13,335 nucleotides of DNA from Bradymonadia bacterium (GTDB lineage Bacteria > Myxococcota_A > Bradymonadia > UBA7976 > UBA1532). The translations under genes were made by a program, and so were the position numbers. The notes beneath the pieces are model-generated. The model had not been told where the DNA came from. It was given only the letters and a program-made list of their open reading frames with translations, and did no database searches. Positions 5,226-8,524 of this stretch are shown here, one piece after another (the first letter of the stretch is position 1; every line of letters starts with the position of its first letter). The DNA is taken from positions 1-13,335 of the forward strand of contig JBILLN010000188.1 in NCBI GenBank assembly GCA_044376085.1, given 5' to 3'.

Positions 5226-6638
5226 ATGCACGACTTCGACTGGTTGGTCATCGGGTCCGGTCCGGCGGGCGAGAAGGGCGCGGTGCAGGCGGCGTGGTTC
5301 GGCCGCCGCGTCGCCGTGGTCGAGCGCGCGCCGGCGCATGGCGGGGCCTGCGTTCACACGGGCACGCTGCCGAGCAAGACGCTGCGCGAGACGGCGCTCT
5401 ATCTGTCGGGGCACCGGCAGCGCGAGATGTACGGCCTCGACGTGCATCTGCAGCGCGACGTCTCCGTGCACGACCTCATGTGTCGCCAGGACGCCGTGCT
5501 CGGCAACGAGGCGGGCCGGATCGCCCGCAACTTCGAGCGGCACGGCGTCACGCAGTTGCGCGGCCACGCGACGTTCGTCGATGCCCACACGCTGCGCATC
5601 GAGCCGCCCGACGCGGCCCCGTACACGGTCACGGCGGACGCGGTGCTCATCGCCACGGGGACGAGCCCGTTTCGTCCGACCTGGGTGCCCTTCGACGACC
5701 CTCTCGTGAGCTGCTCCGACACGATCCTCGATCTCGACCGCATCCCGAAGGCGATGGTGGTGCTCGGCGGCGGCGTGATCGGCTGCGAGTACGCCTCGAT
5801 CTTCGCGGCGCTCGGCACGAAGGTCACCATCGTCGAGGGCCGCGAACAGATCCTGGGGTTCCTCGACGGCGAGGTCAACGCCCGGCTCTCGACCGCGCTC
5901 GAGGCCCTCGGGTGCGAGATTCTGCTCCGCCGCGAGGTGGTCCGGGTCGGGCGGGACGCCGACGACGCGCTGGTGTGTACCCTGGCCGACGGGCGCTCGC
6001 TGCCCTGCGAGCGGTTGCTCTTCGCCGGCGGGCGCTCGGGCAATACGGCGAGCCTGGGCCTCTCGAACATCGGGGTCACGCCCGCCGCGCGCGGTCTGCT
6101 GACGGTCGACGCGAACTACCGCGTCGTCGGCGCGCCCGACGGGCGAATCTACGCTGCCGGCGACGTCATCGGGTTTCCGGCGCTGGCCTCGGTCGCGATG
6201 GAGCAAGGGCGCGTCGCGGCCTGTCACGCCTTCGATCTCGGATACAAGACGGCCGTCTCGCCGCTGTTTCCCTACGGGCTGTACACGATCCCCGAGGTGG
6301 CGACGATCGGCGAGACCGAGGCGCAGGCGCAGGCGCGGGGCGAGGACGTCGAGACCGGCCGCGCGTCCTACGCGGACAACGCCCGCGGGCAGATCGTGGG
6401 GGACCTCCAGGGCTTCCTGAAGCTGGTCTTCCGGGCCTCGGACCGTCGGCTGCTCGGGGTGCACATCATCGGCGAGCGCGCGACGGAGCTCGTTCACGTC
6501 GGCCAGTCGGTGATGGCGCTCGGAGGGACCATCGACACGCTGGTCCACCAGGTCTTCAATTTCCCCTCGCTCGGCGAACTCTACAAATACGCGGCCTACG
6601 ACGGTCTGGGGCGTCTGGCGCGGCGGGCGTCCACATGA
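5226..6638 (+). CDS. sthA: Soluble pyridine nucleotide transhydrogenase (Si-specific NAD(P)+ transhydrogenase).
   Basis: The protein aligns end-to-end with E. coli SthA from memory. Matching blocks are DFDWLVIGSGPAGE (cf. DYDAIVIGSGPGGE), GGACVHTGTLPSKTLR (cf. GGGCTHWGTIPSKALR), GGGVIGCEYASIF, ERLLFAGGRSGNTASLGLSNIGV (cf. [23 protein letters not shown]), AAGDVIGFPALAS, GLYTIPEVATIGETE and C-terminal FNFPSLGELYKYAAYDGLGRL (cf. [21 protein letters not shown]). The start is taken at ATG 5226 by homology. The tracked ORF begins at an upstream GTG (5154). Confidence 0.9.
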   Translation: MHDFDWLVIGSGPAGEKGAVQAAWFGRRVAVVERAPAHGGACVHTGTLPSKTLRETALYLSGHRQREMYGLDVHLQRDVSVHDLMCRQDAVLGNEAGRIARNFERHGVTQLRGHATFVDAHTLRIEPPDAAPYTVTADAVLIATGTSPFRPTWVPFDDPLVSCSDTILDLDRIPKAMVVLGGGVIGCEYASIFAALGTKVTIVEGREQILGFLDGEVNARLSTALEALGCEILLRREVVRVGRDADDALVCTLADGRSLPCERLLFAGGRSGNTASLGLSNIGVTPAARGLLTVDANYRVVGAPDGRIYAAGDVIGFPALASVAMEQGRVAACHAFDLGYKTAVSPLFPYGLYTIPEVATIGETEAQAQARGEDVETGRASYADNARGQIVGDLQGFLKLVFRASDRRLLGVHIIGERATELVHVGQSVMALGGTIDTLVHQVFNFPSLGELYKYAAYDGLGRLARRAST

Positions 6639-8524
6639 GACGTACGGTGTACGTCTTCGCCTTCGGTTGCCTCGCCTGCTCGACCTCGAATTCGACCGGC
6701 GACGGCGCGGCGCCCCGCGACGCCGCGATGGCCCCGACCTCCGACGCCGCGTCGGCCCTCGAGCCCGATGTCCCGCAGCCCGATGCCCGCGCGGGCACGG
6801 ACGCGCGCGCACCCGACGACGATGCCGGCGCCGCCGGGGTCGCCGATGCGCGTCCGGCGCCGGATGGGCGCACGACCACGCCCGACGCGGCGCCCCCGCC
6901 GCCCGATCCGACGGACGCGGTCTTCGACTGGGACCACGTGCTCGAGGTCGAGGTCACCCTGCCAGCCGCCGACTGGGCCGCCCTGCGCCAGCAGGGGCGC
7001 AGCGGGCTCGACACGCGCGGGGCGGACTGCATGGACGCGCCGTTTCCTTCGCCCTACACGTGGTTCGAGGGCGAGGTCACGCTCGACGGGCGGGCCTACT
7101 CGCGGGTCGGCGTGCGCAAGAAGGGCTTCTTCGGGTCGTTGAGCCGGTCGCGACCGTCGCTCGTCCTCGATCTGGACCGCGAGGTCGACGGACAGGCGCA
7201 CGAGACGCTGACCCGCATCGCGCTGAACAATGGCAAGCAGGATCCGAGTCGCCTGCGGACGTGTCTCTCGTACGGCATCCTCGCCGACGTCGGCGTGCCG
7301 GCGCCCCGCTGCCACTTCGCGCACGTCCGCGTGAACGGTGAGGATCTCGGCCTGTACGCCCACGTCGAGAGCATCCGCAAACCCTTCCTGCGGCGCCATT
7401 TCAGCGACGACGAGGGCCATCTGTACGAGGGCGCGCTGAGCGATTTCCGCCCCGGGTGGTCGGGCACCATCGAGCAGAAGACCGACGAGGACGTGCCCCA
7501 TCGCGCCCCCATCGACGCGGTCACGCAGGCCGCGGCCGAGAGCGACGAGCGCCTGCTCGCCGCCCTGGAGGGCGCGCTCGACCTGCCTGCCTTCTACCGC
7601 TTCTGGGCGGCCGAGGTGATGATCGGTCACTGGGACGGCTACGCGGGCAATACCAACAACTTCTGGCTCTACGAGGATCCGGCGCAGGGCGGGCGGCTCG
7701 TCTTTCTGCCGTGGGGTCCAGACGGCGCGCTGCAGCCGCCCCGCCTGTTCTTCGAGGGCCTCGTCGCGCCGGCCTCGGTGCTGGCCTCGGGCATCCTCGC
7801 CCGGCGTCTGTACCTGCATCCGGAGGGCCGCGACCGCTACCTCGTGACGCTCGCCGAGATGGTCGTCGAGCACTGGAATCCCGCGATGCTGCAGGCCCGA
7901 GTCGACCGTCTCGCCGCGCTGGTCGGGCCGCGGATGCCCCCCGAGCAGCGGGCGGCCCATGCACAGGCCGTGGCCGAGCTGCGCACCTGGGTGGGCGGCC
8001 AGCGTCGCCGGCTCGAGAGCGAGCTGGTCCGGGGCGACGTCCCCTGGGACCTGCCGTTGCGGCCCTCGTTCTGCACCGTGAACGTGGGTCGGTTGAGCGG
8101 CGCGGTCCAGACGACGTGGGGTTCGTGGCCCACGCAGGACACCTTTGCCACCGGCACGGGCCGGGTGGAAGGCGTGTTCCGCGATGCGCCGCTGGTCGTC
8201 GATGCGGTCGGGGGCGCGGCGGGGGTCGACGAGCAGGGCCGACCCGTCGCGATCCTGCCCCTGGCCATGACCGGGGGGGCGCTCTGGTTCGTCTACCTCG
8301 GCTTCGATCCCGAGCAGCTCGCCGCCGCCGAAGTCGACGCGGCCCAGATGCCCGCCTGCTCGCTGAACGCGTTCGACGTGAACACGGGCGAGGCGACGTT
8401 CCTCGCCGACTGCCGGGACGGCGTCGTGCGCGTCGCGTCCGAGAGCGCGGTGCCCGGTGCGGCATTCGGGTTCGAGCTCGACGTGGGGCTCTGGGTGGGC
8501 GTCGACGACGCGCCCGCACCGTGA
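6635..8524 (+). CDS. CotH-family protein (atypical protein-kinase fold family), a probable lipoprotein.
   Basis: The ATG at 6635 overlaps the sthA TGA as ATGA. The N-terminus MRRTVYVFAFGCLACSTS is a signal with a lipobox-like Cys. A Pro/Asp/Ala-rich linker follows. The core carries the CotH hallmark FWAAEVMIGHWDGYAGNTNNFWLYEDPAQGGRLVFLPWGPDGAL (cf. the CotH consensus NWDsY..NhNYYLY.D..gKf.fIPWDlD). Confidence 0.85.
   Translation: MRRTVYVFAFGCLACSTSNSTGDGAAPRDAAMAPTSDAASALEPDVPQPDARAGTDARAPDDDAGAAGVADARPAPDGRTTTPDAAPPPPDPTDAVFDWDHVLEVEVTLPAADWAALRQQGRSGLDTRGADCMDAPFPSPYTWFEGEVTLDGRAYSRVGVRKKGFFGSLSRSRPSLVLDLDREVDGQAHETLTRIALNNGKQDPSRLRTCLSYGILADVGVPAPRCHFAHVRVNGEDLGLYAHVESIRKPFLRRHFSDDEGHLYEGALSDFRPGWSGTIEQKTDEDVPHRAPIDAVTQAAAESDERLLAALEGALDLPAFYRFWAAEVMIGHWDGYAGNTNNFWLYEDPAQGGRLVFLPWGPDGALQPPRLFFEGLVAPASVLASGILARRLYLHPEGRDRYLVTLAEMVVEHWNPAMLQARVDRLAALVGPRMPPEQRAAHAQAVAELRTWVGGQRRRLESELVRGDVPWDLPLRPSFCTVNVGRLSGAVQTTWGSWPTQDTFATGTGRVEGVFRDAPLVVDAVGGAAGVDEQGRPVAILPLAMTGGALWFVYLGFDPEQLAAAEVDAAQMPACSLNAFDVNTGEATFLADCRDGVVRVASESAVPGAAFGFELDVGLWVGVDDAPAP

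Follow-up and report, generated by a model that had tools for sequence, protein, structure and literature searches.

The stretch of DNA analysed here, a window of 13,335 nucleotides (nt) of contig JBILLN010000188.1 from a Bradymonadia bacterium (assembly GCA_044376085.1), carries sthA, a gene for a soluble NAD(P)+ transhydrogenase, and directly behind it cotH, a gene for a predicted CotH-family lipoprotein, whose start codon overlaps the sthA stop codon. This junction is very probably a recent, lineage-restricted accident of gene order in a Myxococcota genome and no conserved functional module. The CotH protein itself is, as far as alignments and models can tell, a member of a large stand-alone family of Myxococcota lipoproteins that retain the catalytic Asp and Asn, have Gly at the position of the metal-binding Asp and carry an invariant Asp two residues further on. 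In a preliminary description the pair had been regarded as an uncommon kind of operon that might serve development or the remodelling of the envelope, a proposal that did not survive comparison with related genomes, where the pair was encountered only in three contigs of one near-identical clade.

The junction (6630-6641) reads tccacATGAgac (cacATGAgac), with the TGA of sthA at 6636-6638 and the ATG of cotH at 6635-6637. Because the coding frame, followed by the GC content of the third codon position (GC3), switches at about 6600-6650, both reading frames are considered real, and the overlap given in the preliminary description stands as read directly. The same junction is present as GTGA in two related contigs, L001 and L087, and in both of them the GTG start is needed to take in the Arg-Arg n-region of a signal peptide, which matches the MRR of the window protein. 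A consensus scan revealed no terminator-like site between sthA and cotH, although such a scan is uninformative at the GC content of the window, 72%.

To the three closely related contigs that possess the pair belong the window (L006, the same sequence as the terminal part of ENA contig ERZ27272066 k141_484387), the closest relative, Myxococcota bacterium GCA_023150895.1 (L001/L007; CotH 73-78% and SthA 87% identical), and a JGI contig (L087; SthA 88% identical). Downstream genes for a major facilitator superfamily (MFS) protein and a Major Vault Protein (MVP)-like protein are common to the three contigs of this sub-clade. The neighbours 5' of the pair are DoxX_3 and DUF2269 genes in the window, divergent genes for an extracytoplasmic function (ECF) sigma factor and its anti-sigma factor together with an S8 peptidase gene in L001, and egtB/egtD-like genes in L087. 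DoxX_3 and DUF2269 were seen 5' of sthA only in the window contig; the flanking regions of L001 and L087 lack them. In L087 (43-2285), the pair is immediately preceded by genes for a DinB_2/FGE-sulfatase protein and a Methyltransf_33 protein, which we take to be the domain pair typical of the ergothioneine genes egtB and egtD.

At the next-closest cotH orthologs (L002, L005, and L008; CotH identity 61-64%) no sthA was found. In these loci cotH lies 72 nt from a divergent gene for a PG_binding_1 protein of 676 amino acids (aa) that is 71% identical to the product of window positions 1646-3685 (L002, 3898-5928; L005, 3019-5049). Orthologs of this protein with 71-85% identity are encoded near cotH in L001, L002, L005, and L008, and in the last three the gene is directly divergent from cotH. 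Throughout the five-genome clade, the only conserved neighbours of cotH are the gene for the PG_binding_1 protein of 676-679 aa and a small lipoprotein-like gene (window 1188-1679). Outside its peptidoglycan (PG)-binding domain (aa 130-186), the PG_binding_1 protein gave neither a Pfam nor a PDB match. At the more distant cotH loci L003 and L004, neither sthA nor the PG_binding_1 gene is nearby; a 677-aa neighbour in L003 was considered as a PG-binding protein, yet in spite of its similar length it is not homologous.

A scan with one genome per GTDB species yielded at least 536 confirmed relatives of the window cotH, of which the best 80 were used together with flanks of up to 8 kb at either end, and in 68 of these 80 species-representative loci the sequence 5' of cotH extends over 1.5 kb or more. 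When SthA was compared by tblastn (E ≤ 1e-5) with these best 80 of at least 536 loci, a match was detected only in L007 and none in the other 79. After calling of open reading frames (ORFs) with a GC3 filter and all-against-all blastp clustering, no neighbour family was conserved across 80 or more cotH loci. Recurring neighbours were only generic Hanks-type kinases and sigma-54 activators at variable positions. As no conserved partner accompanies cotH across these loci, there is no guilt-by-association clue to the function of CotH.

Seen from sthA, the picture is similar. After the stop of the SthA ortholog with 83% identity (L088) there is no cotH start in the following 196 nt, which is all that this contig offers; in this segment (2231-2426) a GC-rich repeat of about 65 nt (gcgactgcgctgcgggttttcggctggtggtgctt) occurs about three times before the contig ends. 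Among SthA orthologs with 69-71% identity, those examined (L094, L095, and the contig of P0125) have no adjoining cotH; sthA is found there in the context Fer2, small ORF, sthA, ApbA, URO-D, or before a convergent MFS gene. A Fer2 ferredoxin gene and an ORF of 112-126 aa were observed upstream of sthA in L094 (3175-5452) and L095 (1840-7386), and ApbA, URO-D, and amino-oxidase-type genes, which resemble heme biosynthesis genes, downstream of sthA in L095 and in the P0125 contig. This Fer2/ApbA/URO-D neighbourhood may reflect an earlier position of sthA within the group.

The four-nucleotide overlap as such was evaluated in seven related contigs. Counts were taken from database gene calls; calls based on the longest ORF over-extend and cannot show overlaps of 4 nt. 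About one in three co-directional adjacent gene pairs (15 of 47) overlap by exactly 4 nt, and within the window there are two other cases, between the TetR and NmrA-like genes (10178-10181) and between the MFS and MVP-like genes (12186-12189). Furthermore, cotH orthologs overlap unrelated downstream genes by 4 nt, namely DUF1905 genes in L002 (7893-8177) and L005 (7038-7322) and a SpoU methylase gene in L004 (8220-8981). These overlaps at the 3' side of cotH mirror the overlap with sthA on the opposite side. Since same-strand pairs overlap so frequently and cotH overlaps unrelated genes elsewhere, the overlap is uninformative with respect to shared function; it is a property of compact GC-rich genomes and no signal that two products work together.

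The most likely course of events starts from the arrangement of the wider clade, in which cotH is directly divergent from the gene for the 676-679-aa peptidoglycan-binding protein. The region between both genes would be a hot spot of rearrangement where, in a shallow sub-clade, sthA arrived at the position next to the 5' end of cotH (or, alternatively, was lost from there in the sister lineage); further upstream of sthA lies other cargo, different in each genome. As sthA is immediately 5' of cotH in the sub-clade, cotH no longer faces the divergent intergenic region and has no such region of its own. Most likely, transcripts from the sthA promoter would read through into cotH, and its translation would begin by termination-reinitiation at the ATGA, or at the GTGA in the relatives. 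SthA is expected to work in the cytoplasm as a flavoprotein that balances NADPH against NADH, whereas the CotH protein would leave the cytoplasm, carry a lipid at Cys15 and be anchored by a disordered tether of 77 residues, with a kinase-like domain containing probable disulfides and a C-terminal beta-barrel. The two products are probably functionally unrelated and reside in different compartments, and no connection between their chemistries was seen.

A true functional operon, in which co-expression of SthA and CotH had been selected, for instance in order to couple the redox state to remodelling of the envelope or to development, is considered very unlikely. One fact that speaks for it also weighs against a mere accident: the three contigs of the sub-clade all retain adjacency and the 4-nt overlap, with completely different upstream flanks, and because the junction is kept and the flanks differ, the pair behaves as a unit there. 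The lack of a terminator-like site between both genes points in the same direction. Retention of the junction is expected from a shared recent ancestor, yet it may be compatible with selection for co-expression. Further reservations about an accident are that the direction of change may have been insertion of sthA or its loss in the sister lineage, that an internal promoter may exist inside the 3' end of sthA, for which the sigma-70 consensus scan is nearly blind at such a GC content, and that all relatives are metagenome assemblies with thin sampling of the sub-clade. Against selection for co-expression stand the absence of the pair from the next-closest cotH orthologs, from 79 of the 80 species-level loci and from the surroundings of the SthA orthologs with 69-83% identity, as well as the different compartments of the two products and the frequency with which 4-nt overlaps occur, also between cotH and unrelated genes. 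Still less credible is the idea that the overlap is an illusion of annotation and that the true start of cotH lies downstream, for example at Met32 (DAAMAPTS), in which case the genes would be separate and a signal peptide would be missing. There is indeed an in-frame ATG at codon 32, and the gene call in L087 begins with an ATG that follows the sthA stop by 21 nt. However, a start at Met32 would remove the hydrophobic segment together with Cys15, in an alignment column for which conservation among 47 homologs reaches at least 90%. In L001 and L087, an Arg-Arg n-region like that of the window protein is included only with the overlapping GTG as start, and the conserved cysteines of the mature part fit an exported protein. 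A recent accident of gene order with a genuine overlap is the preferred interpretation.

The identities that the preliminary description had assigned to both genes were confirmed, and public annotation already names them correctly ('NAD(P) transhydrogenase' and 'CotH kinase family protein'). In the case of the second gene, the product matches the Pfam family CotH (PF08757) with 123 bits, compared to a cut-off of 23.8, at aa 166-437, and by sequence it matches B. cereus CotH in the PDB (E 5e-7). It is identical to P0001, encoded on the ENA contig mentioned above. A structure model obtained with AlphaFold2 (AF2) on the basis of 47 homologs reached a predicted local distance difference test (pLDDT) value of 87.8 and a predicted template modelling (pTM) score of 0.84, and the top Foldseek matches of this model were B. 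cereus CotH structures 5jd9/5jda (E 6e-18, template modelling (TM) score 0.80 when normalised to the target).

A putative lipoprotein-type signal, as proposed in the preliminary description, is also present. The N-terminus (aa 1-15) reads MRRTVYVFAFGCLAC, followed by STS after Cys15, and is composed of the MRR n-region, a hydrophobic core of 11 residues and L13-A14-C15, although position -3 is occupied by Cys12 and not by Leu, Val, or Ile. The Cys15 column contains at least 90% Cys in the 47 homologs, and among the matches listed, 92 of 120 homologs possess a lipobox-like motif within their first 70 aa; Cys15 is the predicted lipidated residue. The adjoining low-complexity tether (aa 16-92) had been described as a Pro/Asp-rich linker. 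With 20 Ala, 15 Pro, and 13 Asp (48 of 77 residues; 26%, 19%, and 17%, respectively) it does form a linker, but it is better called Ala/Pro/Asp-rich. For most of its length pLDDT is below 50, it aligns poorly and its length varies across homologs. Four cysteines, Cys132, Cys210, Cys226, and Cys480, are invariant in the 47 homologs; three of them are not matched by a Cys in the B. cereus-type CotH, which lacks the domain containing the fourth. The four cysteines fit an oxidising compartment, and together with the conserved lipobox Cys they support an extracytoplasmic location.

The window protein shares the Pfam family and the fold with Bacillus CotH, the Ser/Thr kinase of the spore coat in B. 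subtilis and B. cereus (PDB 5JD9, 5JDA; PF08757), and keeps the catalytic Asp (D334, the equivalent of D228) and the catalytic-loop Asn (N342). In contrast, only about 17% of the residues are identical, and while Bacillus CotH is a coat protein of the mother-cell cytoplasm, the window protein is a predicted exported lipoprotein with a disordered tether of 77 residues, an additional C-terminal beta-barrel of about 150 residues, conserved cysteines without counterpart in the B. cereus-type protein, and Gly at the metal-binding column of D251 with an Asp shifted by two positions. Also, no cotB/cotG-like substrate genes are located near the window cotH. A sporulating lineage had been suggested; nothing in this stretch shows sporulation, and the lineage belongs to Myxococcota known only from metagenome-assembled genomes. 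Parts of the architecture of the window protein are also displayed by CotH proteins from Paenibacillus cellulosilyticus (NZ_CP054613, L090) and Enterococcus faecalis (LR962858, L091), which have an N-terminal lipobox (LTGC and LIGC, respectively), a low-complexity linker and a CotH domain, but which keep the first Asp of a canonical WDYN/WDQN motif and are devoid of the C-terminal barrel of the Myxococcota family. As lipoprotein-type CotH also exists in Firmicutes, in a context other than sporulation, exported and lipid-anchored CotH is widespread and not special to the window.

For the analysis of the active site, five Firmicutes CotH sequences from a plasmid collection (B. cereus-type, Alicyclobacillus, Brevibacillus, Paenibacillus, and Enterococcus) were aligned with 13 members of the Myxococcota family. 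According to PMC7821199, which cites Nguyen et al. 2016, the exchanges D228Q and D251A abolish the activity of B. subtilis CotH. The corresponding columns were inferred from a spacing of 23 residues in three spore-type sequences from Bacillales, in which the first Asp of WD[YF]D follows the Asp of NFDGF at a distance of exactly 23 residues, matching that between D228 and D251. Window D334 (in HWDGY) aligns with the Asp of N-F-D-G-F and so with B. subtilis D228, and N342 aligns with the catalytic-loop Asn of H-N in Bacillales CotH. In the D251 column, where the Firmicutes sequences have the first Asp of WDYD/WDFD/WDYN/WDQN, the window protein has G361. As Paenibacillus and Enterococcus have WDYN and WDQN, this first Asp is a position conserved across the Firmicutes CotH sampled. 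Of the catalytic residues whose presence was to be expected in an active CotH according to the preliminary description, the catalytic Asp and Asn are therefore in place, but the metal-binding Asp is replaced by Gly361. Among the matches listed, [WH]GxD was found in 119 of 120 homologs (P0001-P0120) and WDx[DN] in none. In the alignment of 47 sequences, K162, E265, D334, N341, N342, G361, and D363 are invariant, so that G361 and the Asp at +2 are both fixed; an Asp at this +2 position is carried by Bacillales CotH as well. From these alignments, the active site is strongly conserved but non-canonical.

With Gly in the D251 metal-binding column, kinase activity cannot be assumed, and it is possible, if rather doubtful, that the protein is a pseudokinase or no kinase at all, functioning as a binding or scaffold protein or as an enzyme with different chemistry. 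The loss of activity of Bacillus CotH upon the D251A exchange (PMC7821199) would agree with this idea. The lipoprotein export signal, moreover, would place the protein outside the cytoplasm, and the periplasm is not known to offer ATP. On the other hand, D334, N342, K162, and D363 are retained without exception in the 47 homologs, whose identity to the window protein is only 39-75%; this argues for an active site that is preserved rather than decayed, and the +2 Asp is shared with the Bacillales proteins. Most likely, the protein would act outside the cytoplasm on a substrate of the envelope or the surface, by phosphotransfer or by a modification that depends on nucleotides. It is taken to be a phosphotransferase-like enzyme, tethered to the envelope or surface, whose metal site is modified and which has gained a barrel domain.

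The product of the first gene was identified as SthA by the NCBIfam equivalog model NF003585, which it matches with 540.6 bits (cut-off 465) over aa 2-465 of 470, and by this model it is assigned as a transhydrogenase. All other models for flavoprotein disulfide reductases remained below their own cut-offs, the next best being Lpd. Pfam domains Pyr_redox_2, Pyr_redox (aa 177-248), and Pyr_redox_dim (aa 349-456) were recognised, and Rossmann motifs for the binding of FAD and NAD(P) are present as GSGPAG at aa 10-15 and as GGGVIG inside the Pyr_redox domain. At the position of the CxxxxC motif of Lpd and glutathione reductase (GR) enzymes, the protein has a single Cys (GGAC42VHTGT47LPSK), a pattern at the former CxxxxC site that is typical of SthA. 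It shares with E. coli SthA (UdhA) the three-domain architecture of flavoprotein disulfide reductases and the single Cys in the former redox-disulfide motif, and beyond ordinary divergence it shows no notable difference.

The gene map of the window is based on the ORF list and on GC3 (Table 1). The Uma2-family gene bounds the sthA-cotH unit on the 3' side, and no gene on the + strand follows cotH. Three long ORFs were rejected as genes on the basis of GC3: an ORF of 1104 aa in the cotH frame (5210-8524, +) is a stop-free shadow of GC-rich sequence, and ORFs at 4743-6812 (−) and 6596-8575 (−), which run across or antisense to sthA and cotH, are shadows typical of 72% GC. In the region 5' of sthA (5008-5225), neither a sigma-70-like match in a consensus scan, which is weak evidence in DNA so rich in GC, nor an Rfam match was obtained. 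A weak terminator-like hairpin was noted at 4636-4653, between the DoxX_3 and DUF2269 genes. The truncated gene at 12186-13298 (−) encodes a bacterial protein with the Major Vault Protein domains Vault_3 and MVP_shoulder and is continued in L001 (17945-20449), where its product has 834 aa. Between the window and L001 this is the best-conserved protein of the neighbourhood, with 96% identity, compared to 94% for the MFS protein, 87% for SthA, and 73-78% for CotH.

Table 1. Features of the 13,335-nt window, with positions counted from its first nucleotide.
Feature	Position	Strand	Basis or remark
Secreted protein, no Pfam match	<3-989	−	GC3 + ORF list
Small lipoprotein-like protein	~1188-1679	−	GC3 + ORF list
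679-aa PG_binding_1 protein	1646-3685	−	Pfam PG_binding_1, aa 130-186
DoxX_3 membrane protein gene	~3868-4620	+	GC3 + ORF list
DUF2269 membrane protein gene	4708-5007	+	GC3 + ORF list
Intergenic region 5' of sthA, 218 nt	5008..5225	+	Probable site of the promoter of sthA-cotH
sthA, soluble Si-specific NAD(P)+ transhydrogenase, 470 aa	5226..6638	+	NF003585, Pfam, GC3
ATGA overlap, cotH start codon / sthA stop codon	6635..6638	+	Direct reading of sequence
CotH-family lipoprotein gene, 629 aa	6635..8524	+	Pfam PF08757, AF2 model, Foldseek
Signal peptide with lipobox-like LAC, aa 1-15	6635..6679	+	MRR n-region, hydrophobic core, conserved Cys15
Ala/Pro/Asp-rich disordered tether, aa 16-92	6680..6910	+	Composition, low pLDDT
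CotH kinase-like domain, aa 93-466	6911..8032	+	High-confidence model, best structural match 5jd9/5jda
Catalytic-loop equivalent D334-G-Y-A-G-N-T-N-N342	7634..7660	+	Alignment to Bacillales CotH
W360-G361-P362-D363, variant of WDx[D/N] metal-binding motif	7712..7723	+	Alignment column
C-terminal closed beta-barrel domain, aa 481-622	8075..8500	+	Absent from Bacillus CotH
Uma2-family gene, convergent on cotH	8615..9424	−	Pfam Uma2
NmrA-like gene	9456-10181	−	
TetR gene	10178-10891	−	
MFS gene	10960-12189	−	
MVP-shoulder/Vault_3 protein gene, cut by contig end	12186-13298	−	

Nothing specific was found in the literature on CotH in Myxococcota or on lipoprotein CotH kinases, and as far as literature searches show, the family-wide WGxD motif and the C-terminal barrel have not been described; they represent variation within a known family. 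The pairing of sthA with cotH matters little in itself, as a start/stop overlap of 4 nt in a compact GC-rich genome says nothing on shared function. The part worth following is the large, uncharacterised family of lipid-anchored, CotH-like proteins in Myxococcota with its invariant non-canonical active-site motif, which offers a cheap target for studying the role of exported bacterial CotH 'kinases' outside spore coats. As a speculation that we hold to be improbable, these lipoproteins might constitute a rewired extracytoplasmic branch of the CotH/Fam20-like kinase superfamily, in which the metal-binding Asp was displaced by two positions (WGxD) and a beta-barrel for ligand binding was acquired. 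If this were true, the displaced Asp and the barrel could together allow reactions with novel donors or substrates at the cell envelope, and the linkage to sthA would be incidental.

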